Shown piece after piece: positions 398 through 47,686 of a stretch of DNA of 64,000 nucleotides. The stretch comes from Candidatus Latescibacterota bacterium (GTDB taxonomy: Bacteria > Latescibacterota > UBA2968 > UBA8231): positions 128,001 through 192,000 of the forward strand of contig CBDCSU010000005.1 in NCBI GenBank assembly GCA_965221775.1, given 5' to 3'. The notes below the pieces were generated by a model, which was not told the origin of the DNA, searched no databases, and saw nothing but the letters and a program-made list of their open reading frames with translations. How positions within the stretch are numbered: the stretch's first letter is position 1; each line of letters starts with the position of its first letter. The translations under genes and the position numbers were made by a program.

Positions 398-408
398 GGT
401 GGTCCCCG

Positions 409-675: not shown

Positions 676-687
676 GACCGTTCCTCC

Positions 688-1532: not shown

Positions 1533-1789
1533 GGCGGCTCTTCGGCGCCGTCTAGGATACCCACGACGACGCTGCGCACGGGAGGGAACTCCAGGCCCGT
1601 CACCGCGCTGCCGGCGGCGCCCGAATCGGCCACCAGGACCCGGCAGCCGGGACCGGCGCCCACGGCGTCGACCGCCAGTTGCAGGGCGGCGGCGCCGTCG
1701 CCGTCGTCGACCACCAGGATCCGGCGATGGTCGAGGGCGGGATGATGCTCGGCGGCCACCACGTTGCCGATGACCCGCGCCACTCTCAT
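1529..1789 (-). CDS. BMC vertex pentamer (EutN/CcmL family)
   Basis: MRVARVIGNVVA...AVDAVGAGPGCRVLV...SVVVGILD. Confidence 0.9.
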   Translation of the reverse strand: MRVARVIGNVVAAEHHPALDHRRILVVDDGDGAAALQLAVDAVGAGPGCRVLVADSGAAGSAVTGLEFPPVRSVVVGILDGAEEPP

Positions 1790-2088
1790 GCGGCAGCCTG
1801 GACGAATCGACGGCCGCCGGAGGTCACCGAGTCGACGATGCCCACGAGAACGGCATCCACGGGCAGGTCACCCATCCCCGGGCTCTGACGGGCGGAGCTG
1901 CCTTGCACCAGGAGGACGACCTGGCCCTGGCCGGCGCCCACGGAGTCGACGCAGACCAGGTGCCTGCGAGTGGGAAGGGCTTCCTCGCCATCGACGGTGA
2001 GCAACTCCACGAGCAGCAGTCTCCGGCCCTCGAGAGTGGCGACCTTGGCCGAGGCCACCGCCTGCCCCTTGACCCGCGCCAGGACCAT
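1786..2088 (-). CDS. BMC vertex pentamer (EutN/CcmL family)
   Basis: MVLARVKGQAVASAK...LEGRRLLLV...VDSVGAGQGQVVLLVQGSSAR...PVDAVLVGIVD. Confidence 0.93.
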   Translation of the reverse strand: MVLARVKGQAVASAKVATLEGRRLLLVELLTVDGEEALPTRRHLVCVDSVGAGQGQVVLLVQGSSARQSPGMGDLPVDAVLVGIVDSVTSGGRRFVQAAA

Positions 2089-2094
2089 CTCGCT

Positions 2095-31170: not shown

Positions 31171-33351
31171 ATGAGACCTCTTGCCTACTGCGCCAGCGCC
31201 GTCCTCGCCCTCACCACGGCAGCCTCCGCCGAGGTCATCATTATGGGCGGCCCCGGCAGTCCCTGGGAGGAGGGCGGAGGCGGGATCCAGGCGCAGGTGA
31301 TCCGCGGCGAGTCCGTGGAGAGCACGAACACCCCGGGCGGCGTCATCGACTTCTCGGTCGAGGGCTACGACAACTGGATCTTTGCCCAGCGCGTCGACCC
31401 GGACCTGAACATCGCGGTTGGTTCCCCCGGGCGCGGCGGCGCGCTCACCACTCCCACCCACCGGGCGATCCGCAACGACCTCACCAGGATCATCGACAAC
31501 AACGGCGAGACGGGGCTGGATCTCCGGGAAACCCCGGTTCTGGGTCTGATCGTCGACCTGGATCTCGGCGCCCGCTTCGGCGTCAATCGCTTCCGCTTCT
31601 TCCCCCGCAACGCCGCTGCGGAGATGCCGGCCCCCGACTTTCCCTTCCAGAACGACTTCCTGCGCGGCTTCGAGGTCTTCCTCAACGACGGCACACCCGA
31701 GTCGACGAGCCAGGGAAGACCGATCCTGACGAGCGTGGCCGTGGAGGGGCAGAACGAGGAACCGGTGGTCGACATCCGCATCCCGGCGCAGTATGTCCGT
31801 CTCGTCCGCCTCAAGTCGCTCACCTCGGTCGGATTCGACCTGGCCGAGTTCCAGATCTTCGGGACCGGTTTCGTCCCCGAGGCGGCCTACATCTCCAACA
31901 TCATCGACTTCGGCGCGCCGACCCTGCTCGGCAATCTCCGCTGGGTCCAGGAAAAAGTGGGAGACGAGGCCTTCTCGCGGATCAGGGTGCGCACGCGCTC
32001 GGGGATCGACCCCCAGCCACTGATCTTCAACAAGATCCGTCCCGCCGAGGACATCTTCCGCATCGCCGGCCAGTTCTCCCCGCGAGAATCCCACGTGCCC
32101 TGGAAGTTCGCCGACAAGGTCGACGACCCCGACCTCAAGGCGCTCGTCGAGAACGTCCTGGACAACATCGACGTCGACCTCCGCGACGCCACCCAGACCT
32201 TTGACGAACTGGCCCTCGAGCAGCGCGAAGAGCTCAGCCTGACCGAGGCGGACTACAGGGCCCTGCCCACGAAGGACAGGGGCGCGATCCGCCACGACGT
32301 GACCGGCTGGAGCGAGTGGTCATCGGTCTATCCTCCCGAGGCCGTGGTCACGGCCGACGGGCTCGAGGTGGAAGGGCTCGGCGTCCCGATCGTCTCTCCC
32401 AGTCCGCGGCGGTACTTCCAGGTTTCGATCGAATTCTTCAGCGATGACTTCGAATCGGCCATCGGCGTCGGCGGACTCGCCTTCGACGTGCTCACCCGGC
32501 CCTTCTCCGAGGCCCTCGTCGGGGAGATCCGGCCGCGAAGGGCGGAACTCGCCGAGAAGACCCTGTTCACCTACGCGGTCCGCACCCGCTTCGAGCCGGG
32601 CCGCGACCGGGGCTTTGACCGGTTGAAGATCCAGACACCCTTGCGCGTGGAGGAGGTGGGATCGGTGGAGATCCGGTGGGCCGACGGCAGCGTGGAGTCG
32701 GCGGACTTCACCGGCATGCCCCTGTCGGACTCGGACCTGCCCGTGGCCCGGGGGGACTTCTCCATACTCGATGTAGAGGAGAAATCCTTCACCGTGGGGT
32801 TCCCCGCCGTAGCCGAGGATGGGGCCGAGCTGCGCGTCACCTTCGACAACGCCGTGCTCCGCTTCGGCACCACCTTCTCCGGTCAGGCCCTGAGCTCGGA
32901 GACCGGCGACCTGTTGGGGCAGCACCTTCTCCCCGGCAACGCCGCCGATCTGGGGGCGGGCGATGGGGACACCCTCCCGCTGGGCTCGCAGGTGGCGGGC
33001 AACCTGGCCGTGCACGTGGGGATCACAGACGACCTCCTCGTCAACGTCAAGGCCGCGCCGGCAGTGATCACACCCAACGCAGACGGGGCCAACGACCAGA
33101 CCTCGATCGGCTACGACCTGACCACCATCGGCGCGCCGACGCGGGTGGAGGTTGTCCTTCACGACCTGTCCGGCCGGCCGATCCGCCGTCTGTACTCCGG
33201 GGATGACGTGAGCGGACGCTTCGCCCTCCCCTGGGACGGCCGTGATGACGCCGGCCGGATCGTGCCGCCGGGAAACTACGTCTTCAGCGTGACGGTTGAC
33301 GCGAAGACGGGACAGGCGCGGGCCTTCGGCACCGTCGCCGTGACCTACTAG
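31171..33351 (+). CDS. Secreted multidomain protein A1: discoidin-like domain, Ig-like domains and C-terminal FlgD-Ig/T9SS type-B-like domain
   Basis: Signal peptide (TTAASA-E); LDLG..FGV..FRFFPR and LAEFQIFG; C-terminus PAVITPNADGANDQ...DLSGRPIRRL...WDGRDDAGRIVPPGNY...VAVTY. Confidence 0.8.
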   Translation: MRPLAYCASAVLALTTAASAEVIIMGGPGSPWEEGGGGIQAQVIRGESVESTNTPGGVIDFSVEGYDNWIFAQRVDPDLNIAVGSPGRGGALTTPTHRAIRNDLTRIIDNNGETGLDLRETPVLGLIVDLDLGARFGVNRFRFFPRNAAAEMPAPDFPFQNDFLRGFEVFLNDGTPESTSQGRPILTSVAVEGQNEEPVVDIRIPAQYVRLVRLKSLTSVGFDLAEFQIFGTGFVPEAAYISNIIDFGAPTLLGNLRWVQEKVGDEAFSRIRVRTRSGIDPQPLIFNKIRPAEDIFRIAGQFSPRESHVPWKFADKVDDPDLKALVENVLDNIDVDLRDATQTFDELALEQREELSLTEADYRALPTKDRGAIRHDVTGWSEWSSVYPPEAVVTADGLEVEGLGVPIVSPSPRRYFQVSIEFFSDDFESAIGVGGLAFDVLTRPFSEALVGEIRPRRAELAEKTLFTYAVRTRFEPGRDRGFDRLKIQTPLRVEEVGSVEIRWADGSVESADFTGMPLSDSDLPVARGDFSILDVEEKSFTVGFPAVAEDGAELRVTFDNAVLRFGTTFSGQALSSETGDLLGQHLLPGNAADLGAGDGDTLPLGSQVAGNLAVHVGITDDLLVNVKAAPAVITPNADGANDQTSIGYDLTTIGAPTRVEVVLHDLSGRPIRRLYSGDDVSGRFALPWDGRDDAGRIVPPGNYVFSVTVDAKTGQARAFGTVAVTY

Positions 33352-33362
33352 GAGGAGCGAGC

Positions 33363-36179
33363 TTGAGGGCAATCAGGCTTCTCGCCGTCACCGCCGCGCT
33401 GCTGTCCGGCGCCCCGGTGCTCGGCCAGCAGGACTACGGAACGCGGCTCGGCCTCCAGCGCGGGGGGGAGGTGAGCTTCGCGCCCCAGGGCTCCGGGGTG
33501 CTCTTCGGGGCCCTCGATCCTGCGATCAAGAAGTGGTACATCCCGCAGGAGCTGTACAACTATTACGGCTGGCGCCAGTGGGAGTACACCAACTACGCCC
33601 GGGAGCCCTACGAGCGCTACGTGGGAACGAACCGGGAAGGCGACTACTTCTACGACGTCTACGGCAACTTCACCACCCACGGCTGGCTCATCTACGACTG
33701 GCGGCAGTTCCAGCCCCAGTCCGAGGGCAGCGGCATCTTCCAGGCCACCCGCTTCAACTCCTGGTTCAACGCGGTCACCGTCAGCGGCGACTCCCAGGGG
33801 CAGTACTCCTACTCCATCACCGTGGGAGACCGCATCCGCACCACCCTGACTCCGATGACCTTCTCCAAGCCCGGGTTCAACGGTGTGCAGATCGATTTCT
33901 CCTCCGACAAGTACCACGCCACGGTCCTGTCGTCGCGCATCAGCGAACCGATCCAGGGCTCCTCCCAGGGCCTGGCGGGTGTCACCGCGCCGACGCGGCG
34001 GACGAATCTCACCTCCCTCTTCGGAGGCCGCGCCACCTTCCAGGTGGGCGACTTCATCCTCCTGGGCGCCACCCTGGTGAACGCCACCAACGGCAACACC
34101 GTCCTGGACATGTTCGACGGCGACCCCGTGGCCGGCAACCTGACCTCCGGGCAGAGCACGGCCCCCCTCTCGGCGATCGCCGTCGTCCTGAGCGACGACT
34201 CGCCCGAGGACGGCGAGGGAGGCGCCGCCCTCTTCAGCCACGATGTGCGCATCACGGCGAGGAACTTCGACACGGGGGCGGAGACGGTCTACACCCTGAG
34301 CGACGTGGTGCGCCCCGGCAGCCAGTGGCCCATCGTCTTCGGCGGCGCCCCGGGCTCCGGCTTCCTCGCCGCCGACGGCGAGGAGCGCATCATCCTCAAC
34401 TACGACTTCAACGACCCGGCCTTCGCCCCGCCCGCGGGAGTCGATCCCACGACGATCGTCAAGGTCGAGTTCGACTACGTCCTGGCCAATGACTACAAGG
34501 TCGAGTTGTGGTCCGACCGGCAGAGTTCCCGCCAGGGCATTCCCCAGGCGCCGCTCACCTCGGAGGTCATCGACGAGGCCCGGCCCGCCCTGCTCACCCT
34601 GCGCCGGGCCGAGGGCAACGTGGCCGACCTGACGAACCTGCAGCGCATCCGCTTCGACTACGGGCTGCCCACGGCCAACCTCGTGGGCGGCTTCACCATG
34701 GAGGGGACCGGTCTCTTCGGCCTGGACTTCTACGCGGAGTGGGACCGCAACAAGCGCTACACCCAGTATCCGAATGCCGAGGTATTCAATCTGCGGGAGC
34801 AGCACAAGATCGCGTCGGAGTCGTCCGACGCCTGGTACGTCAACCTGTCGCGGGAAGAGTACCCCTGGTTCGCCTTCGGCGAAGCCTATTCCATCGACGG
34901 CGCCTACTCGACCACGGCCTACCTGGTCAACAACGAAGGCAACACCGTCTACGACGACTCCCAGCTCTATCTCTACGAGTTCGTCGACGACAACGACGAC
35001 CAGGACCGCTCCCCGGACTGGATCCGCTTCGACTCGTCCAGGGACCGGGCCATCTACCCGGGGTGGGACCAGAACAACGACTTCATCTCCGACTTCAACC
35101 AGAACGACAACGCCTCCGCGAACAACACCATCCCCGACTACGACGAGCCCTTCCTCCGCTATCGCGTCGATCGTCCCGAGTTCCTCTTCGGCATCGACCT
35201 GAACAACAACGACTGGATCGACCGCTTCGAGGACGACGACCTGCCCGACTATCCGTACAAGCCCGACCGGCGGGGCTACAACGCCTTTGCCGGCTACCAC
35301 CTGACCCCGTGGGCACGGCTGTCCCTGGGCCGCACCGACGAGGATTCTCCCTCCTCCGACGCGGCGAACCAGACGAACTACGCCCTCTTCACCGTCGACT
35401 GGCAGCAGGCGGGCCTCGGCCGTCTGCGCCTCTTCGACATGCTCAAGCTGGCCCGTGACACGATCCCCGACGACCGCCGCGAGCCCACCCCCCATGTCCT
35501 GGCCCTCACCGTCCAGCCACTGGTGCGGGACACGCTGCCCGCCCAGGACACCTGGGTGAACTCGGCATACGGCGAGTTCACCTTCGAGGGCGTCCCCCGG
35601 CTCCAGATGGTGCACAAGCTGAAGTGGGAGACCTACCGGCAGAACAAGGAGAGCCCGCGCGACAGCGACGGCCGGCGCCTGCGGAGCGACACCGACCTCT
35701 TCGGTCTCATCAACAAGGCCGACTACACCCTCGGCCTGGGACGGTTCGACCTGCAGCCTCGGATCAAGAACGAGTACCTGAGACGCGAGGCCTTCGCCCA
35801 GCTGGAGCCACGCCGGGAGGAGTGGACCCTCACCCTGCAACTCATCGGACGCCTGCCCGTCATGCGTCACACCGTCATCGAGTCCGGCCTGGAGCAGCTC
35901 TGGTTCAGCGACCTGGTGCCGGACGAGGATGCCCTCCTCGCCGAGGCCCTTCAGCAGGAGACGGGCGACTGGCGCTCGACCAACCTCGCCTTCCAGCTGT
36001 CGACAACCTCCGACTACCTCGGATACAAGCTCACGACCCAGGTCGGCTTGCGCCTGGGGCGCATTCTCACCGAGCAGGTCGTCGAGGAGGACGATCGACC
36101 GGGTTCCTTCATTCTCGAGAACCGAGGAAGCACCGAGACGACGACCTTCATCACCGTCTACGCCGGACTCGAGAGATGA
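33363..36179 (+). CDS. Large exported protein B1, putative outer-membrane protein with Asp/Asn-rich motifs; paralog of 37834-40821
   Basis: TTG start after AGGAG; signal peptide (APVLG-Q); aromatic-rich alternating strands in the C-terminal third; DDNDDQDR and DQNNDFISDFNQNDN motifs. Confidence 0.7.
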   Translation: MRAIRLLAVTAALLSGAPVLGQQDYGTRLGLQRGGEVSFAPQGSGVLFGALDPAIKKWYIPQELYNYYGWRQWEYTNYAREPYERYVGTNREGDYFYDVYGNFTTHGWLIYDWRQFQPQSEGSGIFQATRFNSWFNAVTVSGDSQGQYSYSITVGDRIRTTLTPMTFSKPGFNGVQIDFSSDKYHATVLSSRISEPIQGSSQGLAGVTAPTRRTNLTSLFGGRATFQVGDFILLGATLVNATNGNTVLDMFDGDPVAGNLTSGQSTAPLSAIAVVLSDDSPEDGEGGAALFSHDVRITARNFDTGAETVYTLSDVVRPGSQWPIVFGGAPGSGFLAADGEERIILNYDFNDPAFAPPAGVDPTTIVKVEFDYVLANDYKVELWSDRQSSRQGIPQAPLTSEVIDEARPALLTLRRAEGNVADLTNLQRIRFDYGLPTANLVGGFTMEGTGLFGLDFYAEWDRNKRYTQYPNAEVFNLREQHKIASESSDAWYVNLSREEYPWFAFGEAYSIDGAYSTTAYLVNNEGNTVYDDSQLYLYEFVDDNDDQDRSPDWIRFDSSRDRAIYPGWDQNNDFISDFNQNDNASANNTIPDYDEPFLRYRVDRPEFLFGIDLNNNDWIDRFEDDDLPDYPYKPDRRGYNAFAGYHLTPWARLSLGRTDEDSPSSDAANQTNYALFTVDWQQAGLGRLRLFDMLKLARDTIPDDRREPTPHVLALTVQPLVRDTLPAQDTWVNSAYGEFTFEGVPRLQMVHKLKWETYRQNKESPRDSDGRRLRSDTDLFGLINKADYTLGLGRFDLQPRIKNEYLRREAFAQLEPRREEWTLTLQLIGRLPVMRHTVIESGLEQLWFSDLVPDEDALLAEALQQETGDWRSTNLAFQLSTTSDYLGYKLTTQVGLRLGRILTEQVVEEDDRPGSFILENRGSTETTTFITVYAGLER

Positions 36180-37837
36180 GACACCCGCTCCTGCCGGCGG
36201 CTGCATTCGCCCTTGTCACTTCCCTGGTTGGATGCGGCTCCGATCCAGATGAGCCCGTCCTGGCCACCGTCGCTGGAGATCCGATCACCCTCTCCGAGCT
36301 TCGCGCCTTCGCCGAGCGCATCCCGGAGGGCATGCAGGAAGGCGAGTCGCCCTACGAGAGGAGCCGCCAGCTTCTGGAGAGCCTGGTCGACAAGGAGTTG
36401 TTGCTGAGGGCCGCGCTGGACACCGGGCTCGAGTCGGACGCCGAGGTGCAGGACGATCTGGAGCAGTTCGAGCGCAGGTACCTGCGCAAGCTGCACTATC
36501 GCGATTACATCGCCCGGCGAGTGACGATCACCCCGGAGGAAGTGGAGGCGCACCATCGCGCCACCGGGCGCCACCGGGCCTTGCGGCTGGGCGCCATCAT
36601 GCTGCATGAGGAGACCCTGGCGGACTCGATTCATGCCCTCCTGAAGGCTGGAGCCGACTTCAAGGCCTTGGCGAGAGAGCACTCGGTCCACGAGCCGACG
36701 GCCCCGAAAGGGGGAGACTTCGGCACCTATCTGGTTCGGGACCAGATGCCCCCGGAGGCCGGCAAGGTTGCCCCCTACCTCCAGGTGGGAGCCTTCACCG
36801 AGCCCTTGCTCGAGCTCCTGCGCCGCGAGGGGCGGTTCTACGTGATTTACATGGTTCTCGACGAGGTGCCCTCCCCCTTGAGCGTTTCCGAGGGAGTTGT
36901 CGTCGAGGAGGTGGCCCGGCGCAAGCGCGACGAGCGCATGCTTGAGTACCTCGACTCCCTGCGGACCGTCTACCCCGTTCGGGTGCGCGGTGCCACGGTG
37001 CGCCTGGTGGCGGAGCGGATCTCCGAAGCCGGGGAGGCCGGTCCCGACCTGAGCGACTCGGAGGTCGGGGAGGTGATCGCTACCTACGGCGACCGGGAGG
37101 TCTCGGTCAGCGGCTTCTTCGAGATGGCGCGCCGGGCAAAGGCGAAAGTCGGAGGGGCCGACAGCCTCGCCATCGCGCAACTGCTGAGCGACCGGATCCT
37201 CTCCGAGCTGTTCATCGAGGCCGAGATCGAGGCCTCCGGGCTGCGGGAGGACGCCGGTCTCCGGAAGGCCGTGGACCTCAAGCGCCAGGAGGTGCTCGTC
37301 ACCGCCCTGCGGCGCCGCGAGGTGACCCGGCACGTCCGCGCCTCCGACGAGGAGGCCCGCCGGTTCTACGACGAGAATCCGGACCAGTTCACCCGGCCGG
37401 AGTACACGTCCATCGTCGAGATCGTCGTCGCCTCCGACACCATGGCCATGCGTCTCCGGCGGGAGCTGGAGGCCGGCGCCGACGCCGAGGCCCTGGCGGC
37501 GGAGCACACCCTGCGCCCGGGGGCCGCCCATCACAACGGCCGGCTCAACGTCAGTGTCTTCACCCAGAGCTTCTTCCCTGTCCTGGCCGAGAAGCTTGCC
37601 GGGGTGGAGGTCGGCGCCGTGGGAGGTCCCTTCGAGGTAGCCATGGGGCATTCCGTCTTCAAGGTGCTGGAGCGGGAAGCCTACAAGGACCCCTACAACG
37701 ATGAGTCGAAGCGCCGCGCCAAGGCCTACGTGCGCATAGACAAGGCGGCACGGGGGTACTCGCAGTACGTCCGCGGGCTGCGCGAGGAATATCCCGTGCA
37801 GATCTTCGAGGACCGGCTTCGGAGGGTCGAGGGATGA
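36176..37837 (+). CDS. PrsA/SurA-like lipoprotein with two parvulin (PpiC) rotamase-like domains
   Basis: Lipobox LVGC; ADFKALAREHS....PKGGDFG and ADAEALAAEHT.R......GRL; 4-bp overlaps with both neighbours. Confidence 0.82.
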   Translation: MRHPLLPAAAFALVTSLVGCGSDPDEPVLATVAGDPITLSELRAFAERIPEGMQEGESPYERSRQLLESLVDKELLLRAALDTGLESDAEVQDDLEQFERRYLRKLHYRDYIARRVTITPEEVEAHHRATGRHRALRLGAIMLHEETLADSIHALLKAGADFKALAREHSVHEPTAPKGGDFGTYLVRDQMPPEAGKVAPYLQVGAFTEPLLELLRREGRFYVIYMVLDEVPSPLSVSEGVVVEEVARRKRDERMLEYLDSLRTVYPVRVRGATVRLVAERISEAGEAGPDLSDSEVGEVIATYGDREVSVSGFFEMARRAKAKVGGADSLAIAQLLSDRILSELFIEAEIEASGLREDAGLRKAVDLKRQEVLVTALRRREVTRHVRASDEEARRFYDENPDQFTRPEYTSIVEIVVASDTMAMRLRRELEAGADAEALAAEHTLRPGAAHHNGRLNVSVFTQSFFPVLAEKLAGVEVGAVGGPFEVAMGHSVFKVLEREAYKDPYNDESKRRAKAYVRIDKAARGYSQYVRGLREEYPVQIFEDRLRRVEG

Positions 37838-40821
37838 GGATCAACGCCATGGATGGAGCCCGGCGGAACGGACCCGGCAGAGGTCTCCTCGTCCTCCTCC
37901 TCCTGGCGGGCACCTCGGTTGCCGCCGGCGCCCAGCTCGACTACGGCCACCTCCTCGGAGAGCAGGAGCGGGGCCCCCCCCAGTACGGCGTCACCGGGCC
38001 GAGGGTGCTCATGGAAACCCTCGACCCGACGATCAAGCGATGGTACCTGCCGCAGGAGCTCTTCCGAGAGTACGGCCGGCGCCAGTGGTCGTACACGAAC
38101 TACGCGCGCCAGCCCTACGTGCCGTACGTGGGTCATGAGCAGGAGGGCCAGTATTTCTACGACTACTACGGCAACCTCGTCACCCAGGGGTGGCTGGTCT
38201 ACGACTGGCGCCAGACCCAGGCCCGGACCCTCGACAGCAGCAGAATCACCAAGCTCGCGCGCTACGACAGCTGGTTCCACCGCCTCATCATCTCCTCCGA
38301 TGCGACAGGCGACAACAGCTACTCCCTGACCGTGGGCGACGAGATCTTCGCCAGCCTGACGCCGATGACCTTCCGCAAGGCCGGCTTCAGCGGCGTCATG
38401 ACCGACTTCGCCTCCAGCCGCCTTCGCGCCACGGGGCTCTTCGCCCGCCCCTCCCACCCGGTGGTGCTGATCTTCGGAGGAATCGCCTCCGTCCCCCAGA
38501 GCAACTACACCAACCTGACGGCCGCGCGCCTCGAGACGGATGTCACCGACTTCCTGACCCTCGGGGCGACCTTCGTCAACGCTCACAACGCGGCAGGCAT
38601 CCGTGACTCCTTCCAGGGCAACCCCTTCAGAGGGGCCCTGACCACGGGACAACTGAGCAGCCGCGTGAACCTGCTCCTCGTGCGGCTGCGGGACGACTCG
38701 CCCGAAGACGGCGAGGGCGGGCCCATCCTCTTCGACTCCGACCTGGAGATCACCACCTCCCTGTGGCACGAGGTCGACGTCGAGGGCGGGACCCGGCGCG
38801 TCCTCCGGGACACGACGATCAGCGGCCGGAGCATCGGCTTCTACCCCGCCATCGAGGGCGGAGAGGTGCGGGACGGGTTCCGCCGGGCCGACGGCCAGCA
38901 CAGCATTACCATGCACTACACCCTGGCCCCGGAGGAGGGGGAATCCGAGGCCGGGACTCTCCGGCTGCTACTGCAGAGGGCCCTTCAACTGAGCCTGGAC
39001 GAGGCGGACGAGGCCGTCACCCGGATCAGGAACGTGCGCTTCCGCCTGCGCCTGGCCAACGACTACGCCATCGAGGTCGCCTCCGACCGCCAGGCCAACC
39101 GGCACGACATCCCCCAGTTCCTCGAGGTGGCGCGGGCGGCGGGCAACGTGAAGAACCAGTTGAACCCGGAGGAGGTCGTCTTCGACTACGGCCTGCCCAC
39201 GGCGACACAGGTCGCCGGCCTGACCACGGAGATCCGCGACCTGGCGGGCTTCGACTTCTACGGCGAGTTCAACGTCAGCACGAGTGTCCGCCAGTATCCC
39301 AGCACCCTCCTCGAGAAGCACGACAGCTTCTCGGGCATCGTCGGCGACGAGCACGCCCTCGGCTTCCAGGTGAACCTCTCGAAGAAGGCCGGACCGTTGC
39401 GGCTCCTCTTCGAGGGCTTCGGCATGGACGACGCCTACTCCACGAGCATCAAGCCGGTCTCCACCCGGGGAGTCGTGGACTACTCGCCCGAGGCAACCGA
39501 GGGGATCTACGACTTCGTCGACGACAACGACGACCAGGACCGGCACCCCGATCAGGCTCGGAGGTTCCACGGTGGACTGATCCGGCCCCTTGGGACGTCG
39601 GTCAGGGGCTTCCTGGAGACCCCGTTGGGTGTCGCCGACCCGGCCGTGTTCCCGGGCTACGACGAGAACGGCGACCTCATCTCCGATTTCAACCAGAACA
39701 GCAACGGCGACCAGGACAACTACTTCCCCGACTACGAGGAGCCCTTCCTGCGCCACAGGAGCGACCGTCCGGAGTTTCTTTTCGGAATAGACCTCGACAA
39801 CAACGGCGTGGCCGAGCGCTTCGAGAACGACGATCTCCCCGACTACCCCTACAAGAAGGGCCACTGGGGTTACAACGCCCACGGCACCCTTCGCGTCAAC
39901 CCCGACCTCGAGCTCACGGCAGGCTACCTGCGCCAGAACCTGCGCAACGCCGACCGCTCCAACCACACTCCGTACGGCCTCGTCGAGTTGGTGCGGGACC
40001 ATCCGAGATGGGGACGGCTGCAGCTCTTCGACATGGTCAAGCTCGCCCGGGACACGATCGCCGACCCCATCAACTTGTGGATGATGCCCAGTCTCGACTA
40101 CGGAGCCGCCGGCCAGTCGGTGGGCGTCAGCATTCCCCGGCCCGACCCGCTGGCGGCCGAGGACACCTGGATCAACAGCTTCGCCGCCGACTGGAGCTAC
40201 GCGAGCCCACGGGGCTGGTCGATGCGGCACCGGGTCAAGTGGGACTGGTGGCGGCAGCGGAACTCGGAGCCCACCTTCGCCGTCGACGAGGAGGGCGCCG
40301 CCCTGCTGGACGAGGAAGGAGAGCCCGTGGTGCTCTTCGACCCCCTCGGACCTTCGGCCCGCAACGGCCGGGAAACCTCCGGCTTCACCGGCTTCATCAA
40401 CAAGGCGGACCTGCTCTTCCACATGGGGCGGCTGTCCCTGTCGCCGCGGATCAAGAGCGAATGGCGCAACGAGGCGCCCTTCTCCCGGGACGAGGAGCGG
40501 CGCCGATCCTGGGACGGCATCGCCTCCCTGCTTGTGCGCATGCCTTTCATGGCACACACCCACCTCGAGTTCGGACTGGAGGGGCGCAACTTCGCCGAGT
40601 TGCGGGCCGACGAAGACGAGCTTTCGCCCAGCACCCTGACCGGGGACTTCCGCGGCGTGGTGTACGCCGTTCAGTTGACCAATCGCCGGCCTTTCAAGAG
40701 CTACCTCGCCACCACCCAGGTCGGACTCCGCTTCGACCGGCGTTCCCTGGAGGTCGTCGAGGGAGACCGCGAGCAGCGCACGGCGGGGCTGGCCTTTGTC
40801 ACTGTATTCATGGGTCTCTAA
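37834..40821 (+). CDS. Large exported protein B2, paralog of 33363-36179
   Basis: Signal peptide (VAAGA-Q); collinear shared blocks LDPxIKxWYxPQEL, RQWxYTNYAR, LTPMTFxKxGF, DDSPEDGEGG, FDYGLPTA, DDNDDQDR, RPEFLFGIDL, LPDYPYK, GxINKAD, TTQVGLR. Confidence 0.72.
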   Translation: MRINAMDGARRNGPGRGLLVLLLLAGTSVAAGAQLDYGHLLGEQERGPPQYGVTGPRVLMETLDPTIKRWYLPQELFREYGRRQWSYTNYARQPYVPYVGHEQEGQYFYDYYGNLVTQGWLVYDWRQTQARTLDSSRITKLARYDSWFHRLIISSDATGDNSYSLTVGDEIFASLTPMTFRKAGFSGVMTDFASSRLRATGLFARPSHPVVLIFGGIASVPQSNYTNLTAARLETDVTDFLTLGATFVNAHNAAGIRDSFQGNPFRGALTTGQLSSRVNLLLVRLRDDSPEDGEGGPILFDSDLEITTSLWHEVDVEGGTRRVLRDTTISGRSIGFYPAIEGGEVRDGFRRADGQHSITMHYTLAPEEGESEAGTLRLLLQRALQLSLDEADEAVTRIRNVRFRLRLANDYAIEVASDRQANRHDIPQFLEVARAAGNVKNQLNPEEVVFDYGLPTATQVAGLTTEIRDLAGFDFYGEFNVSTSVRQYPSTLLEKHDSFSGIVGDEHALGFQVNLSKKAGPLRLLFEGFGMDDAYSTSIKPVSTRGVVDYSPEATEGIYDFVDDNDDQDRHPDQARRFHGGLIRPLGTSVRGFLETPLGVADPAVFPGYDENGDLISDFNQNSNGDQDNYFPDYEEPFLRHRSDRPEFLFGIDLDNNGVAERFENDDLPDYPYKKGHWGYNAHGTLRVNPDLELTAGYLRQNLRNADRSNHTPYGLVELVRDHPRWGRLQLFDMVKLARDTIADPINLWMMPSLDYGAAGQSVGVSIPRPDPLAAEDTWINSFAADWSYASPRGWSMRHRVKWDWWRQRNSEPTFAVDEEGAALLDEEGEPVVLFDPLGPSARNGRETSGFTGFINKADLLFHMGRLSLSPRIKSEWRNEAPFSRDEERRRSWDGIASLLVRMPFMAHTHLEFGLEGRNFAELRADEDELSPSTLTGDFRGVVYAVQLTNRRPFKSYLATTQVGLRFDRRSLEVVEGDREQRTAGLAFVTVFMGL

Positions 40822-40831
40822 GGACGGGATC

Positions 40832-42751
40832 ATGACCAGGACGGGACGTACCATCGCGCAGGCCCTGACCCTGCTGCTGGGCCTGGGCACCGCCGCCCAG
40901 GGGCTGACCATCTACCGCATCGGGGGCTCGACTCTGCCTCCGCCCGAGTTGCCCGAGGGGGCCGACTTCGTGCAACTGGACTGGCAGGCCGCCGTGGACA
41001 GCGATCACGGCGCCATCGATCTGCTGCACGGGCTCGAGCCCGACGCCCTGGAGCCGGACAAGCTGGACCCGGCGGTAAACCTGGCCCCCATCTTCGAGGA
41101 GATCGGCGGGAGCATCTTCAACTACGCTACGCACGGCTTCGTGGCCGGGTACAAGGCAGACGACGTCCTCTTTGACGGCGATCCCGAGACCGTGCTTCTC
41201 GGGGACGGCCACTGGGGCGGAGCCCACCACTACCCCTTCCTGGAACTCGTCTTTGATTTCCCGGGCACCTTCACCATCGCGCGGATCGTGATGTATCCGC
41301 GCGAGCGATACCTGTCGAGCCGCTTCGTGCAGTGGTTCCGCATCGGGTTCAACGACGCCAAACGCAGCCGAAGGGGCGGCCCGGTCATCCGCGCCCGCAA
41401 CTGGGAGTTCGAGATCGTCTACGAGGACGTCGAGAACTCCCGGGGGCACATCGAGCTGACCGCCCTGCCCGAGTACCCGGTAAAGGAGCTGCTCGTCTCG
41501 CTGGCCGAGAACACGCAGGGCATCTGGGAAATGGCCGAGATCGAGGTCTACGGCCGGGGCTACACGCCCGAGGCGGCCTACGTGAGCCAGGTCATCGACC
41601 TCGGGGGCCCCTCCGCCCTGGGGGACCTCAGTTGGTCCGCCGAGGTCGACCCCGGAGCCGATCTGAAGTTGCGCATGCGGGCCGGGGACGATTTGGGTCC
41701 CAACCTCTACTGGCGTTACACCTTCCGCGGCAGTGGGTCCACCAGCCGGTTGGACGAGCAAGGCCAGCCCCTGACAAAGGACGGATACGAGAGCCTGGAC
41801 AGGCGGGAACGGGCCGGGACCACGCCGGACACCGAGAGCTGGGACGGTTGGAGCACGCCCCTCGACCACTCCGAAGGGACCGTGCCCTTCCGGGCCTCAC
41901 GGCCCCGCCAGTTTCTCCAGGTGCGCGCCGATTTCAACTCCACCGTCGACGCCGGCTCCCGCCTCCAGTACCTGCAGTTCGCGGTCTCCCAGCCGCCGGC
42001 GGCCACCGTGGTCCTCGGGGAGATCACCCCGACCATGGCCTCCGTCGACGAGGTGACGCCCTTCACCTACCTGATGACGCCTGTCATGCGCTCCGGGAAC
42101 TACGGGTTCGACCGCATCCTCATCGACACGCCCACCACCGTGGCCGGCATCGATGGCGTGCGCTTCAACGGCCAGCCCGTGGCCTACGAGGTCCTGCGCC
42201 TCGACGAATCGGGCTTCGAGATCGCCGTCCCCCGGGTCGACGAGAGCCGCGACGGCGAGCTCATCGAGATCGACTTCCGCTCCCGGATCTTCCGCTTCGG
42301 CACCGTGTTCTCCGGCCGGGTCATGGACAGTCAGCGCCCCGAGGAGGTGGCGCAGGTGGTCTCCCCCGGCGAGGCGGACCCGATCGTCGACAGCAACACC
42401 CTGAGCGTCGGCCTGGACGAGGTGGGCCGGCGGACGGTCAATGCCCTCACCCTCGAGCCGCCGGTCTTCAGCCCCAACGGAGACGGCATCAACGACCGGA
42501 TGAGTCTCGAGTACGAGCTGGTGAACGTGGAGGGTGACGCCGAGGTGGCCGTCGTCCTCTACGATCTGCGGGGCTCACCCTTGGAGGAGGTCTTCCGCGG
42601 GCCGGCCGGCAGCGGCCGGTTCCGCGCCGAGTGGGACGGCCGCGATGCCGGGGGACGCCTCCTCGGTCCGGGGATCTACATCCTGCGGATCGAGGTCGAG
42701 TCGGACCTCGGAATCAGGTCCAGGGAAAGGGTCGTCTCCCTTGTCTACTAG
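40832..42751 (+). CDS. Secreted multidomain protein A2 with C-terminal FlgD-Ig/T9SS type-B-like domain
   Basis: Signal peptide (GTAAQG-L); FDGDPET, MAEIEVYG, SQVIDLG, RPRQFLQ, GFDRILIDTP; C-terminus PPVFSPNGDGINDR...WDGRDAGG..LGPGIY...VSLVY. Confidence 0.8.
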   Translation: MTRTGRTIAQALTLLLGLGTAAQGLTIYRIGGSTLPPPELPEGADFVQLDWQAAVDSDHGAIDLLHGLEPDALEPDKLDPAVNLAPIFEEIGGSIFNYATHGFVAGYKADDVLFDGDPETVLLGDGHWGGAHHYPFLELVFDFPGTFTIARIVMYPRERYLSSRFVQWFRIGFNDAKRSRRGGPVIRARNWEFEIVYEDVENSRGHIELTALPEYPVKELLVSLAENTQGIWEMAEIEVYGRGYTPEAAYVSQVIDLGGPSALGDLSWSAEVDPGADLKLRMRAGDDLGPNLYWRYTFRGSGSTSRLDEQGQPLTKDGYESLDRRERAGTTPDTESWDGWSTPLDHSEGTVPFRASRPRQFLQVRADFNSTVDAGSRLQYLQFAVSQPPAATVVLGEITPTMASVDEVTPFTYLMTPVMRSGNYGFDRILIDTPTTVAGIDGVRFNGQPVAYEVLRLDESGFEIAVPRVDESRDGELIEIDFRSRIFRFGTVFSGRVMDSQRPEEVAQVVSPGEADPIVDSNTLSVGLDEVGRRTVNALTLEPPVFSPNGDGINDRMSLEYELVNVEGDAEVAVVLYDLRGSPLEEVFRGPAGSGRFRAEWDGRDAGGRLLGPGIYILRIEVESDLGIRSRERVVSLVY

Positions 42752-42781
42752 ATGCCCAGATAGCTGACAGGAGGTCCGCAC

Positions 42782-45439
42782 ATGACACGGATCATCAGCT
42801 TCTACACCGCCCTTCTGGTCCTGGCTGCCGCCACCGGCCTGACGGCCCAGGGCCGGGCGTACCGGATCGCCGGCGACGAGCTCGTCGTCGACCGCCGCAG
42901 CCTCTGGCAGAACTGGAGCTTTCCCGAGGAAACCCTCGAACTCTCCCCCTCGGGGGAGGTGCGGCCCCTCGCCCTGCGCAAGGACATCGCCGCCGTCCCC
43001 GAGATCGTCCGCTTTCTGCGCCTCCATCCACCGCCGAACCTCAAGCACAAGGAGCCCGAGGAGATCACCCTCGCCGACGCCGTGCAGGCCGGCTCCAACC
43101 CCCGTGACGCGGTCAACGTCCTCGACGGGGACCCGACGACATACTGGCAGCCCGACCTGACCGACATCCCACCCGTCGAGCTCGGCGCGCGGTGGTGGCT
43201 CATGGTCGACCTGGGACGGAACGTCATCGCCAAGAGGCTGGTGGTCCGGTTCGCGGAGGAGGGGTTGGGCGACCCGTTCCTTCAGTTCGACGTCCTCGTC
43301 TCCAACGGCGAGCGTTCGCCGTCCGCCGCCGCTTCGAAACACCCGCTCTTCGCGACGGTGTACCGAACGTTGAGGCCCAACAAGGACGTGCGGGTGCTGG
43401 ATCTCACCTTCGAGGACGTATACACCGATTCCATCGTCGGCGAGGCGCCGCTGGCCGCCATCCTGCCGCCATCCACCGTCGACCGTGACCACAGCGTGCA
43501 GGCCCCCAGGGAGCTCGCGGGCGCCTCGCTGCGATACGTCATGGTGGTCGTCCGTGACAGCGACTTCGACCGTGGCAGGCTGGTCAGCCCCGAGGCCTAC
43601 GCCGCCCTGCCCGAGGACGACAAGGGCGCCGTCGTCCACCACAAGCTGCAGCGGGACGGCCGGCTCACCGAGTTGAGCGAGGCCGACTACCTGCGTCTGC
43701 CCGCCGGACAGCAGGGAGAGATCCTCCACTACCGCAAGGAGCGGCCCCGCCTGGCCGACATCGAGGTGTGGACCGAGGGGGACAACGTCCTGCCCGCCAT
43801 CTACAAGCGCGGCGGGGAAATCAGCGGCAACGCGAACCTGAACTACGGCAGGCTGGTGGACGGCTTCGTGGGCTCCTTCACCGAGGTCAACTTGGGCAAC
43901 GAAGGGTACATCCTCTTCGACCTGGGGGCCACCTTCTGGCTCGACGCCTACCGGCTGATGTACGGCGGGGTCACGAACCGCGAGAGAAGGAGCTTCAACT
44001 CCTACGATCTCGAGGCCTCCGACGGATCCCTGAACCCCGACGGCACCCTGAAGTTCAAGACCGTGGCCCGCCGCATACAGAAGTTTATGCGCAAGGACTT
44101 CGAGGTTCACGACTTCGACCTCGTGAAGACCCGGTTCTTCCGCCTCGTCTTCGAGCTGGGCTTCACCGCCGAGCAACCTCACACCGCCGCGCCAGGGGAG
44201 ATCTACCTCTACGGCCGCGGATACATCGCCGAGGTCCGCATGGAGTCGGGCCTGGTCGAGCTCGGAGCCCGGCGCAACCTTCTGAGCATGTCCTGGGAGG
44301 CGGACACCCCGCCGGGGACCAGGATCTCGATCCAGACCCGCGCCGGCAACGAGCTGCGGGAGGTCCTCCACTACTACAAGGCCGACGGCACGGAGATCAG
44401 CGAGAAGGCCTACAACAATCCGTCCCTGCTGCCCTCCTTGAAGGGCGACATCGTCGCCGAGATGGTAGAAGGAGACGACTGGAGCGGCTGGAGCCAGCCC
44501 TACGAGGACGCCTCGGGAAGTCCCTTCCTCTCTCCCTCCCCGAGGGAGTTCCTCAACATCGCCGCGACCCTGGTTTCGGACGACCCCGATCTGCACCCCA
44601 CGCTTCGCTCCCTCCGGCTGCGCTTCAGCAACCCCGTCGCCCAGGGGCTCCGGGCGGAGGTGACCCCCACCCGGGTCGACTCGCTGGGGGTGCAGCGGGA
44701 CTTCTCCCTGTTCCTGCGGCCCGAGTTCGACAATCGGGACCCGGGCTTCGACGAGCTGCTGCTCAGGACGCCTCCCGACATGTCCCTGGAGTTCGCCGGT
44801 CTCTACGCCGGGTCGGCCGAGGAGTTCGACGGCGGGGGCGGTACCCTGGTGGAGGACATGGAGCTCATGCCGACCGGTCCCGACAGCCTGCGCCTCTCCT
44901 TCCCCATCGTGCGGCCCCGTGGGATCGAGGTGTTGCGCCTCGACTTCCGAACCGCCCTGTTCACCACCGGCGCCCAGTTGCAGGCCGCGGTCAAGCGGAC
45001 CCGGGACGGCGAGGACGCCTGGCAGCGGGTTGATCCCGGAGACGCCCTCGCCAGCGTCGACAGCGACGCGATCACCCTCATCGGCGAGGCCACCGGCGGA
45101 GGCCTGCTCACCGGTGTGGACCTGAGTTCCCCGGTGATCACGCCCAACGGCGACGGGATCAACGACGAGGCCCGATTCTCGCTCAGCGTCGTCCGCGTCG
45201 CCGACGGAAGCCCCGTGGACCTGCGGATCCACGACCTCGGCGGCCGGCTCCTTCGCCGGATCGTCGAGCACGGATCCTCGAGCGCCGGCCTCTATGAGAT
45301 CACTTGGGACGGCCTGGACGACAATGGGCTCGTCGTGCCACCGGGGATCTACCTCGCGCGCCTCCGGGTCGACACCGACGACGGCGGGCGCAGGCTGAGT
45401 GGCAACGAGGTGGTGCGGACCCTGGCCGTGTCCTACTGA
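42782..45439 (+). CDS. Secreted multidomain protein A3 with two discoidin-like domains and C-terminal FlgD-Ig/T9SS type-B-like domain
   Basis: AGGAGG RBS; signal peptide; LDGDPTTYW, VDLGR, LADIEVW, FDLGATF, GEIYLYG, SPSPREFL; C-terminus SPVITPNGDGINDE...DLGGRLLRRI...WDGLDDNGLVVPPGIY...LAVSY. Confidence 0.8.
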   Translation: MTRIISFYTALLVLAAATGLTAQGRAYRIAGDELVVDRRSLWQNWSFPEETLELSPSGEVRPLALRKDIAAVPEIVRFLRLHPPPNLKHKEPEEITLADAVQAGSNPRDAVNVLDGDPTTYWQPDLTDIPPVELGARWWLMVDLGRNVIAKRLVVRFAEEGLGDPFLQFDVLVSNGERSPSAAASKHPLFATVYRTLRPNKDVRVLDLTFEDVYTDSIVGEAPLAAILPPSTVDRDHSVQAPRELAGASLRYVMVVVRDSDFDRGRLVSPEAYAALPEDDKGAVVHHKLQRDGRLTELSEADYLRLPAGQQGEILHYRKERPRLADIEVWTEGDNVLPAIYKRGGEISGNANLNYGRLVDGFVGSFTEVNLGNEGYILFDLGATFWLDAYRLMYGGVTNRERRSFNSYDLEASDGSLNPDGTLKFKTVARRIQKFMRKDFEVHDFDLVKTRFFRLVFELGFTAEQPHTAAPGEIYLYGRGYIAEVRMESGLVELGARRNLLSMSWEADTPPGTRISIQTRAGNELREVLHYYKADGTEISEKAYNNPSLLPSLKGDIVAEMVEGDDWSGWSQPYEDASGSPFLSPSPREFLNIAATLVSDDPDLHPTLRSLRLRFSNPVAQGLRAEVTPTRVDSLGVQRDFSLFLRPEFDNRDPGFDELLLRTPPDMSLEFAGLYAGSAEEFDGGGGTLVEDMELMPTGPDSLRLSFPIVRPRGIEVLRLDFRTALFTTGAQLQAAVKRTRDGEDAWQRVDPGDALASVDSDAITLIGEATGGGLLTGVDLSSPVITPNGDGINDEARFSLSVVRVADGSPVDLRIHDLGGRLLRRIVEHGSSSAGLYEITWDGLDDNGLVVPPGIYLARLRVDTDDGGRRLSGNEVVRTLAVSY

Positions 45440-45451
45440 AGCCAAAAGTGG

Positions 45452-45480
45452 TTGATTTCCAGGGATTTTCTTAGTAACGT
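45452..45480 (+). promoter_or_regulatory. sigma70-like promoter of duplicated gene C1
   Basis: TTGATT (45452-45457), 17 nt, TAACGT (45475-45480), in an AT-rich patch. Confidence 0.6.
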
Positions 45481-45564
45481 TCGTAGGCCCACCGTCGATC
45501 ACCCACGACCGAGGGTATCCCCCCGGTCCTTCACCCTTTCCATCATGCGATTGGAGTCATGACC

Positions 45565-46488
45565 ATGAGAAAGACCCTCACCATGGCGGTCCTGCTGCTG
45601 GGCGTCGGCTCGGCGCAGGCCCACCTGCCCCCGGGCAATGTCCTAGGGGTCTGGCAGTGGCCTTCGAATGCCCTGCCCACCTTGGACGGCGACATCAGCG
45701 AGTGGGAGGTCATCCCGGATTACCTGTGGCTCAATCCGGCCACCTCCCTGGACAACGATGGCAACCCCCTGTTCACCGGCGTCCATGGCAACGACAAGGG
45801 CATGTCCGGCCCCGAGGGTGACGCCTCCGACCTCACCATCCGCGTCGCCGTCGCCTGGAACGACGAGTTCGACCGCATGTACTTCGCCCAGGAGCGCTTC
45901 GACGACGTGTACGACCGCGACGTGGCGGAGCCGCCCGGCGAGTGCGGCGGCGACGACAGCATCGAGATCCATGTCGACGCCGACCACACCGGTGGTGTCA
46001 TGGTCACCGGCGACGAGGAGACGCAAGCCAGGTCGGCCCAGATTGCCCACTGGCGCTGGCCGCCGATCGGGGAAGGGAATAACGCCTGGAGCTGGATGTG
46101 GGTGAGCGCCGCCACCTGGCACGACAAGGAGCCCTATGCCTGCTGCCCCACCGCCTTCGACATCGACGGTGGGCACGGCGACACCGATGTGACGCTGGTC
46201 TCCGAGTGGTGGACCGTCTACTTCAACAACTTGGTTCACCTGTCGCCCGAGGAGAGCGTGGTCGCCCCCCTTTCGGAGGGCCAGATCATCGGCATGACCT
46301 TCGCCCTTTGCGACATCGACGGGGCCGCCCAAGACGGCCCCAATACGGTCTGGGTGTCGGGCGGTGAAGGCGCGGCGAGGTATTACGCTGACAGCGATGT
46401 CCTCGGCGACTGGGTCCTGTTGGAGAACATGATGACGGCCGTCGAGTCCAATAGCTGGGGTCAGGTCAAGGCCAGCCTCCAGCAGTAG
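45565..46488 (+). CDS. Secreted CBM9/DOMON-like protein C1 with C-terminal AVESNSWGQVKAS motif
   Basis: Signal peptide SAQA-H; PTLDGDISEW, VAWNDE.DRMYF, DDSIEIHVDAD and IIG....CDID resemble CBM9-like sugar-binding domains; start at the second ATG, 8 nt after GGAG as in its paralog. Confidence 0.7.
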   Translation: MRKTLTMAVLLLGVGSAQAHLPPGNVLGVWQWPSNALPTLDGDISEWEVIPDYLWLNPATSLDNDGNPLFTGVHGNDKGMSGPEGDASDLTIRVAVAWNDEFDRMYFAQERFDDVYDRDVAEPPGECGGDDSIEIHVDADHTGGVMVTGDEETQARSAQIAHWRWPPIGEGNNAWSWMWVSAATWHDKEPYACCPTAFDIDGGHGDTDVTLVSEWWTVYFNNLVHLSPEESVVAPLSEGQIIGMTFALCDIDGAAQDGPNTVWVSGGEGAARYYADSDVLGDWVLLENMMTAVESNSWGQVKASLQQ

Positions 46489-46523
46489 AGCGGCTGTACC
46501 AGCGCCGCTGGTCAACGGTTTCC

Positions 46524-46560
46524 AGGGAGGCAGGCCCCCGCGGCCTGCCTCCCTTTTCTT
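46524..46560 (+). terminator. Rho-independent terminator
   Basis: AGGGAGGCAGGCC-loop-GGCCTGCCTCCCT followed by TTTCTT. Confidence 0.88.
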
Positions 46561-46577
46561 GCCTCGGCAGGAATGCG

Positions 46578-46606
46578 TTGATTCTGGGGGGTTTTGGTGG
46601 TACTAT
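46578..46606 (+). promoter_or_regulatory. sigma70-like promoter of duplicated gene C2
   Basis: TTGATT (46578-46583), 17 nt, TACTAT (46601-46606). Confidence 0.65.
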
Positions 46607-46680
46607 ACCCGCAACCGCTCAGGATCGAGGTATCCGGCCCCGATCGATCACCCTCCCATCATGCGATTGGAGACAGGACC

Positions 46681-47613
46681 ATGAGAAAATCCCTCACCAT
46701 GGCGGCTCTGCTGCTGGCCTTCGGCTCGGCGCAAGCCCACGTGCCCCCAGGCACCGTCCTCGGGGTCTGGCAGTGGCCTTCGCATGCCCTGCCCGTCATG
46801 GACGGCGACATCAGCGAGTGGGAGGTCATACCCGAATACCTCTGGCTCACCATGTCCACCCTGGACAACGACGGCAACGCCCTGTTCCACGCCGTGGCGG
46901 GCGATCACAAGGGCATGGACGGCACCGATAATGACGCCGCAGACCTCACCATCCGCATGGCCGTCGCCTGGAACGACGAGTACGACCGCATGTACTTCGC
47001 CCAGGATCGCTTCGACGACACGTGGGACCGCGACGTGGCGGAGCCGCCCGGCGCGTGCGGCGGCGACGACAGCATCGAGATCCACGTTGACGCCGACCAC
47101 AGCGGTGGCCTCATGGTCACCGGCGACGAAGAGACGCAAGCCAGGTCTGCCCAGATTGCCCACTGGCGCTGGCCGCCCATCGGAGAAGGGAACAACGCCT
47201 GGAGTTGGATGTGGGTGAGCGCCGCCACCTGGCACGACAAGCCGCCCTATGCCTGCTGCCCCGACTCCTACGACTTGGACGGTGAGCACGGCGGCACCGA
47301 TGTGAGTCTGATCTCCGAGTGGTGGTCCGTCTACTTCAACAACCTGGTTCACCTGTCGCCCGAGGAGAGCGTGGTCGCCCCCTTGTCGGAGAACCAGATC
47401 ATTGGAATGGGGATCGCCTTCTGCGACATCGACGGGACCTCCAACGAGTCGGGCCACAATTCGGTCTGGCGGTCGGGCGGTCCCGGTGGCGCGAGGTGGT
47501 ACGCCGACAGCGACGTCGTCAGCGACTGGCTCCTGCTGCCGGTGGATCCAGCTTTGGCCACCGCCGTCGAGTCCAACAGCTGGGGCCAAGTCAAGGCCAG
47601 CCTGGAGCAGTAA
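46681..47613 (+). CDS. Secreted CBM9/DOMON-like protein C2, close paralog of C1
   Basis: MRKSLTMAALLLAFGSAQA-HVPPG; long stretches identical to C1 (MVTGDEETQARSAQIAHWRWPPIGEGNNAWSWMWVSAATWHDK); ends TAVESNSWGQVKASLEQ. Confidence 0.72.
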   Translation: MRKSLTMAALLLAFGSAQAHVPPGTVLGVWQWPSHALPVMDGDISEWEVIPEYLWLTMSTLDNDGNALFHAVAGDHKGMDGTDNDAADLTIRMAVAWNDEYDRMYFAQDRFDDTWDRDVAEPPGACGGDDSIEIHVDADHSGGLMVTGDEETQARSAQIAHWRWPPIGEGNNAWSWMWVSAATWHDKPPYACCPDSYDLDGEHGGTDVSLISEWWSVYFNNLVHLSPEESVVAPLSENQIIGMGIAFCDIDGTSNESGHNSVWRSGGPGGARWYADSDVVSDWLLLPVDPALATAVESNSWGQVKASLEQ

Positions 47614-47648: not shown

Positions 47649-47686
47649 AGGGAGGCAGGCCGCCGCGGCCTGCCTCCCTTTCTCTT
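47649..47686 (+). terminator. Rho-independent terminator
   Basis: AGGGAGGCAGGCC-loop-GGCCTGCCTCCCT followed by TTCTCTT; same stem as at 46524. Confidence 0.85.

Follow-up and report, generated by a model that had tools for sequence, protein, structure and literature searches.

A recurrent, multi-copy gene cassette of Latescibacterota encoding predicted large outer-membrane barrels of an undescribed family

Several described envelope systems share part of their plan with the gene cassette reported here, which occupies positions 31171-47613 of a 64,000-nt window (the whole stretch of DNA analysed) from a Candidatus Latescibacterota bacterium (the source genome, G000) and encodes three A proteins, two B proteins, two C proteins and a lipoprotein of the peptidyl-prolyl isomerase (PPIase) type. 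[quoted passage not shown] In the type-B T9SS/PorP-SprF arrangement (TIGR04131, PF11751), cargo with a distinct C-terminal domain (CTD) likewise lies just upstream of a small dedicated barrel (the accessible part of PMC12618676 has the cognate small barrel encoded directly downstream), and SprA, PorU and PorV are likewise found in the genome; here, however, it is a PorV-like protein that forms the small barrel, the Tyr-ending CTD stays under the cut-off of TIGR04131, B exceeds a shuttle about threefold in size, and a search for GldL, GldM and GldN, made without a positive control, returned none of them. The Agl-Glt/Nfs machinery of Myxococcus (AglRQS, GltC, D, E, G) similarly combines a TolQ-like with two TolR-like proteins, TPR proteins, a TonB-like C-domain, several barrels and paralogous clusters, but its GltH, GltA and GltB measure 209-275 amino acids (aa) according to the accessible part of PMC3169522 (B: ~900-1000 aa), the only domain match here is to GltG and lies below the cut-off, and the cargo here is T9SS-tagged. 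FimD/PapC ushers are comparable to B in barrel size and in the possession of an inserted beta-sandwich, and differ in that no usher sequence match was found, the superposition leaves a root-mean-square deviation (rmsd) of ~7 Å, the insert of B would point outward, and pilin/chaperone families are missing; Deinococcus SlpA is similar as a large barrel with weak local profile similarity and differs in that no surface-layer homology (SLH) domain occurs here.

On the sequence evidence, the cassette belongs to a real, conserved and multi-copy envelope system of Latescibacterota that lies outside every tested family, with a new architecture and a predicted function; the novelty lies in the components and their architecture, and the function may parallel that of Ton or Agl-Glt. 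A sequence-only reading of the window had described eight co-directional genes for exported proteins, in three paralogue families plus a foldase, and all open reading frames (ORFs), their spacing and their paralogy were reproduced:

31171-33351, + strand: A1, 726 aa; all-beta multidomain secreted protein with a CBM32/F5-8-type domain, more beta-sandwiches and a T9SS-type CTD with a Tyr end
33363-36179, + strand: B1, 938 aa; by prediction an outer-membrane beta-barrel (~24 strands) from a family not yet described; carries a beta-sandwich insert and a loop rich in Asp
36176-37837, + strand: PPIase, 553 aa; lipoprotein, SurA-like N-domain plus two parvulin domains (Rotamase and SurA_N matches)
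37834-40821, + strand: B2, 995 aa; second member of the barrel family by 40% identity to B1 (the model is of B1 alone)
40832-42751, + strand: A2, 639 aa; A-family paralogue, CTD with a Tyr end
42782-45439, + strand: A3, 885 aa; A paralogue (F5_F8_type_C_2, E 5e-6, just below the cut-off; FlgD_ig, E 3e-8), Tyr end
45559-46488, + strand: C1, 309 aa; CBM9-like secreted protein, His first in the mature form, short C-terminal Trp-Gly tag
46524-46554, + strand: terminator-like hairpin 3' of C1 (hairpin scan)
46681-47613, + strand: C2, 310 aa; recent tandem duplicate of C1 (78% identity, flanks similar too)
47649-47679, + strand: terminator-like hairpin 3' of C2 (hairpin scan)

The first six genes are separated by 11, -4, -4, 10 and 30 bp (A1-B1-PPIase-B2-A2-A3), followed by 119 bp between A3 and C1 and 192 bp between C1 and C2. 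Signal-peptide-like N-termini in all eight proteins, as well as a lipobox in the PPIase, were judged by eye, and the pairs of A proteins are 25-29% identical. The hairpin scan returned 5 terminator-like sites vs 8.2 in shuffled sequences, a number that by itself is no evidence, and a sigma-70-like site 5' of C2 was seen by eye only, under the threshold of the promoter scan. Contigs from RNA libraries span the cassette and bridge several of its gene junctions in 4/4 runs (3 studies), which can neither show a level nor prove transcription; the deepest of them are those of C1, contig depth being no proof of expression level.

The gene grouping exceeds chance, given its recurrence across 79 related loci (from 80 kept of 129 confirmed), in which A was found in 78, the PPIase in 69 and C in 46, A lay immediately 5' of B in 70, and the order A-B-PPIase-B was present in 22. 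Furthermore, in a sample of 151 Latescibacterota genomes (related and partly incomplete, to be read as a pattern and not as a statistic), B was recovered from 95, A from 93 (E up to 1e-20), C from 93, a PorV-like subfamily from 76 and a TPR protein from 73. A, C, the PorV-like subfamily and the TPR protein were recovered from the 95 B-positive genomes only (89 of which have SprA), and none of the five was found in three sister families (51 genomes, 50 of them with SprA). The test of co-occurrence and synteny proposed in the sequence-only reading had a positive outcome: the families co-occur, in loci and in genomes, and keep their order. Full-text literature, with supplements and most subscription journals outside its coverage and a brief mention therefore possible, held no published description of the system; it yielded no article pairing Latescibacter with type IX secretion and mentioned DUF4159 only in a database paper, and the accessible part of PMC7081726 has no word on outer membrane, TonB or motility.

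The B proteins, already proposed as outer-membrane proteins in the sequence-only reading, are predicted to be large outer-membrane barrels of an undescribed family. The AlphaFold2 model of mature B1 (predicted local distance difference test score, pLDDT, 87.3; predicted template-modelling score, pTM, 0.85; 102-row alignment) shows 23 long strands and a short one at 102-106, probably 24 in all, along which lipophilic and polar columns alternate in an amphipathic manner. A beta-sandwich is inserted in the model at ~225-413, and an Asp/Asn-rich segment (491-614) carries many invariant residues; judging from loop lengths both insertions would point outward, and the Asp-rich loop probably binds calcium. 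The top matches of the fold search were all outer-membrane barrels and none was close (Foldseek TM-score by query length <=0.27): the best VIA Z was 13.7 at rmsd 12.3, and the FimD usher gave an end-to-end alignment (Z 13.7, rmsd 6.8, 316 aligned) that ties with unrelated porins. At the sequence level B1 and B2 have no Pfam or NCBIfam match, a profile search of PDB sequences found no relative of B, family and profile searches found no match to ushers, PF11751 (PorP/SprF) did not match B (938-995 aa vs a ~300-aa shuttle), and hhalign gave a top probability of 3% against SprA (26-row alignment, its added rows being restricted to the middle part of SprA). Local weak matches to SlpA_C (~70-110 residues) were seen in 11/53 distant B proteins (best E 2e-7, all below the cut-off). 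In the ESM Atlas, B fell into unnamed clusters only, the nearest named one being DUF6029 at 0.88 (a lead only), and the B1 insert had no usable match there; it or the Asp-rich loop may have a known fold. No described system matched the locus, as the sequence-only reading had expected.

The B family comprises 1200 representatives at 50% identity (fragments counted). The closest relatives of B1 are in records titled Latescibacterota or Gemmatimonadetes/Gemmatimonadota metagenome-assembled genomes, the latter titles being presumably older labels of the same lineage; the named distant matches are Latescibacterota or unclassified, with the exception of one Omnitrophota-labelled protein and one Planctomycetota-labelled locus (other phyla were not searched systematically). 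A cluster look-up with ten distant B proteins returned almost no taxonomy, and a plasmid collection held no B match. The B tree (FastTree, 49 B proteins from six genomes, midpoint root, fragments <700 aa excluded) separates a clade with B1 and B2 of the window (12/20 copies of the source genome) from a clade of triplets, the latter with positions conserved between the source genome and G014. B1 and B2 each cluster with the same-position copy of another cassette in the source genome (contig C6, 250-265 kb; support 0.99 and 1.0), which points to a duplication as a pair and suggests a hetero-pair.

With regard to the A proteins, the AlphaFold2 model of A1 (pLDDT 91.9) places residues 59-212 on the CBM32 structure 4a42 (Z 15.8, rmsd 1.9, 123 aligned) and residues 599-706 on the CTD of Porphyromonas gingivalis PorU (6za2; Z 12.2, rmsd 2.5, 99 aligned), the comparison concerning the first and last domains, as the middle ones were barely covered. 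A Pro-Arg motif, which we take to have a role in CBM32, is kept in 62/62 and 59/62 rows. According to these models A is lectin-type at the fold level, with sugar binding predicted; of the earlier description of A and C as lectin-like, the folds (CBM32 and CBM9) bear out the general type, and lectin character is suggested at fold level only. No SusD match was found among the eight genes. FlgD_ig scored above the cut-off in A1 (E 2e-8) and in A3, and A1 displays the features of T9SS cargo (i.e. a Sec-type signal and a PorU-like CTD in a genome with SprA and PorV). To the sequence-only reading, which had recognised no core T9SS component, one correction applies: the A tail, while no such component, is recognisable as a T9SS-type CTD by both the FlgD_ig and the PorU matches. 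As for the type-B CTD (TIGR04131/CHU_C), A1 and A2 reach 13-16 bits vs a cut-off of 35, and one distant A passes CHU_C (32 vs 27). In the source genome 27/28 A genes end in Tyr and one in Trp (220/243 A ORFs across loci end in Tyr, truncated ORFs counted), whereas among 68 other proteins of similar tail type 51 have Arg or Lys as their last residue; moreover, 27/28 A genes lie within 15 kb of B, as compared to 3/68 of the other CTD proteins and a background of 4.7%. The Tyr-ending tail therefore marks a separate sorting class. A near gene-exact lone copy of A2 is found on another contig of the source genome (C4:821819-823757; 96.5% DNA identity over 1941 bp) and a lone copy of the PorV-like gene at C4:251405-252306 (99.9% over 902 bp), two equal-scoring PorV-like copies being present in several other genomes as well; the lone copies may represent real duplication or conversion, beyond the 7.75% contamination of this genome. 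The triplet-B loci (L081, L084, L086 and L134) have upstream, adjoining A, a gene whose product bears a canonical type-A T9SS tail.

The source genome has SprA (608 bits), PorU (580 bits) and two PorV_fam matches above the cut-off. The search for T9SS partners proposed earlier thus bore fruit for sprA and porV, and returned GldL, GldM and GldN in 0/5 genomes each (no positive-control genome; GldK not searched for) and no PorP/SprF match, again without a positive control. SprA occurs in 143/151 Latescibacterota genomes, families without B included (L140 9054-15206; L141 7119-11856). For a B-positive genome without a SprA match (G015), a T9SS independence of B was considered and rejected, as 51 FlgD-type tails and 12 PorV matches in that genome make a gap likelier. 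Among 30 loci around the PorV-like gene, 8 have the order A-PorV-like-B (all outside the family of the window), and the TPR gene lies downstream in 16. This PorV-like gene in the shuttle slot after A, along with the multiplication of B without A in two other genomes (G003 and G012), speaks against the proposal that B is a PorP/SprF analogue, and B is probably not the shuttle of A.

A larger system, with genes for TPR, ExbB/ExbD and DUF4159 proteins located elsewhere in the genome, has the window cassette as a satellite, a point that the sequence-only reading had missed; the cassette is one of about eleven copies. In the source genome, 20 B genes form 11 clusters, of which two adjoin, and at three places a TPR protein (~1090 aa, with an N-terminal hydrophobic segment) is encoded together with a small lipoprotein and a DUF4159 protein; ExbB and ExbD are added at two of the three and the PorV-like barrel at one, so that 20 B stand against 3 TPR and 2 linked ExbB. 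In three distant families a master operon unites, in this order, A, the PorV-like barrel, 1-3 B, TPR, ExbB, ExbD and a second ExbD, with DUF4159 and the lipoprotein. The DUF4159 proteins have a single N-terminal hydrophobic helix, with a His in G003, in G012 and in two copies of the source genome, and without it in the master copy on contig C6. Force transducers are defined, in the accessible part of PMC12204202, by a His-bearing helix and synteny with the motor; that part mentions no Latescibacterota and no DUF. One linked lipoprotein has an AgmX/GltG TonB-like C-domain, and sub-cut-off matches to GltG, GltE and Tgl arise via shared TonB-C or TPR domains. In G003, 9/10 fetched B loci are without A, and most contain a repeated cassette of DUF4159, B, a C-like protein and DUF6785, while 4/5 fetched loci of G012 consist of a lone B without A, a GH42-like or heparinase gene lying close to two of these.

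The parvulin domains support the foldase assignment of the PPIase as far as the domain matches go, and its catalytic residues point to a different activity. At what we take, from parvulin motifs, to be the active-site positions, His is present at the first site of domain 1 in just 2/75 rows and the second site of domain 2 is Ser in 61/75 (for the remaining two sites just the window protein was inspected, by eye); with both catalytic histidines apparently replaced, a holdase/chaperone role is probably the likelier one. C1 and C2 match CBM9 weakly in the domain scan, and the C family profile matches CBM9-2 (1i82) at E 3.5e-5, which suggests a CBM9-like fold with carbohydrate binding predicted. 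His occupies mature position 1 in ~46/49 C sequences (codon at 45622-45624 in C1), and this conserved residue could form a metal-binding rather than a sugar-binding site. C1 and C2 are, by their sequences, evidently the product of a recent tandem duplication. The Trp-Gly C-terminal tag (46420-46488 and 47545-47613) is present in 18/19 C proteins and also on 18 unrelated proteins of the source genome, none within 15 kb of B; no family model matched it, and it may be a distinct sorting or anchoring signal. Another SurA/PpiD-like protein, which has a membrane anchor at its N-terminus and is probably housekeeping, is encoded 13 kb downstream (60338-62152, - strand).

Many diverged barrels per few motors, in combination with binding-fold proteins and a membrane protein, are best accommodated by energised uptake; we give an even chance to the reading in which the cassette would be a satellite of a system that, throughout the Latescibacterota, captures and takes up material at the outer membrane by means of the proton-motive force, Ton/SusCD-like and built from different parts. 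In this scheme, B1 and B2 would sit in the outer membrane as large barrels, probably as a hetero-pair, with the parvulin-like lipoprotein aiding their folding. A1-A3 would be exported by Sec and then leave the cell via the SprA translocon of the genome, their Tyr-ending tails being collected by the PorV-like barrel of the master locus, and would stay near B as surface binders. The ExbB-ExbD motor, the TonB-like DUF4159 protein and the giant membrane-anchored TPR protein, linked to B elsewhere and shared in trans, would open or gate B. C1 and C2 would be separately terminated secreted binders, and DUF6785 may move the cargo inward. The cargo (the weakest step) would probably be large glycans or glycoconjugates.

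A number of observations weigh against energised uptake. No TonB-type plug (PF07715) was found in B1, B2 or, up to E 0.5, in 53 distant B proteins, whereas the same model finds 25 matches elsewhere in the source genome, within the 18-36 of B-negative relatives; the idea that B replaces TonB receptors was accordingly rejected, since the receptor set is undiminished. Motor genes are missing from the window itself, searches of the PDB and Pfam linked DUF6785 to no known transporter, and C1 is without the Trp at the CBM9 position checked (a nearby aromatic residue occurs in about half of 20 rows). Only one clear glycoside hydrolase was recognised among 77 unlabelled neighbour genes of the source genome (77 of 83 scanned, 6 lying outside the fetched loci, with no background set), which makes the loci unlike polysaccharide-utilisation loci; FG-GAP, TPR and GT-C glycosyltransferase genes are abundant near B and would fit surface assembly or adhesion equally. 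Lastly, the genome counts overstate independence.

A more far-reaching formulation, which we consider doubtful, is that of a new class of trans-envelope machine. Its ExbBD motor would drive hetero-oligomers of a new 24-stranded barrel, with DUF4159 as transducer and the giant TPR protein as scaffold; surface modules, sorted by a third, Tyr-ending CTD class and by a PorV-like shuttle of their own, would be fed to it by a T9SS without Gld proteins; it would move whole polymers or folded proteins across the outer membrane; and its specificity cassettes, the window being one, would be interchangeable and number up to dozens. It is seldom that a family of large outer-membrane barrels, or a use of ExbBD-type motors, turns out to be new, and B is found in 95/151 sampled genomes (20 copies in the source genome) of a phylum that has been little studied and is common in the sea and in sponges. 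T9SS parts (SprA, PorU and PorV) are here encountered in a phylum other than Bacteroidota, together with a sorting tail that appears to be new and has a shuttle of its own, and the system offers handles on the sorting of T9SS cargo classes, the role of DUF4159 and the way in which these symbionts feed or attach.

The rival that best survives, albeit an unlikely one, is adhesin display or surface motility of Agl-Glt or SprB-SprF type, where the A proteins would be adhesins on B, moved or tensioned by ExbBD through the TPR scaffold. The parts run parallel to the Agl-Glt core (TPR, TolQ-like, two TolR-like and TonB-like proteins, according to the accessible part of PMC3169522), B comes in position-conserved pairs and triplets, FG-GAP propellers, TPR and GT-C genes cluster with B, and A and B are alike in number in the source genome (28 and 20). 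However, A is missing at most B loci of G003 (9/10) and G012 (4/5), at least 20 diverged barrels per genome are hard to fit with a single motility machine, the sole Glt domain match (GltG) is far under the cut-off, and the accessible part of PMC3169522 holds the core complex alone unlikely to power motility. Less likely still is the model of the sequence-only reading, in which B would be an export or assembly platform (usher-like translocon or oversized PorP/SprF anchor) for Tyr-tailed A, with the parvulin lipoprotein as chaperone: the position of A directly 5' of B (70/79 loci), its proximity to B (27/28 within 15 kb vs 3/68), its invariant terminal Tyr and weak type-B CTD scores, and the end-to-end alignment of the B model on the 24-stranded FimD barrel (Z 13.7, rmsd 6.8, 316 aligned) argue for it, while the tie of that score with unrelated porins, the missing usher family match, the presence of SprA in 89/95 B-positive genomes, the PorV-like barrel in the shuttle position and the frequency of B without A argue against. 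That B, as a relative of Deinococcus SlpA, serves the envelope as a passive or structural porin and bears a glycosylated surface layer made of A and C is very improbable, for the weak SlpA_C matches (11/53, best E 2e-7), the Foldseek rank of 2-3 and the GT-C linkage are set against a TM-score of 0.27, a domain scan that found no SLH or other wall-binding domain in the window proteins, and a linkage to the motor module that it leaves unexplained.

Around the cassette, four neighbours recur or are enriched near B:

27657-29303, - strand: ASPIC/UnbV FG-GAP propeller protein; recurrent, 11/13 genome copies <=15 kb from B
29326-30900, - strand: pentapeptide-repeat membrane protein; recurrent, start uncertain, relatives in 35 clustered loci
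51754-53706, - strand: DUF6785/DUF6784 multi-pass membrane protein; 8/21 copies <=15 kb from B vs 4.7% background
53793-55577, + strand: GT-C (PMT_2) glycosyltransferase with a TPR tail; 5/5 copies <=15 kb from B

Large membrane proteins are also encoded near B loci (L120, L122, L123, L124, L146 and L185), and the three that were scanned have a spermidine-synthase-like domain, two of them with TPR tails. At the start of the window (1-3363), small genes that resemble, by eye, those of microcompartment shell/vertex proteins accompany a larger enzyme gene.

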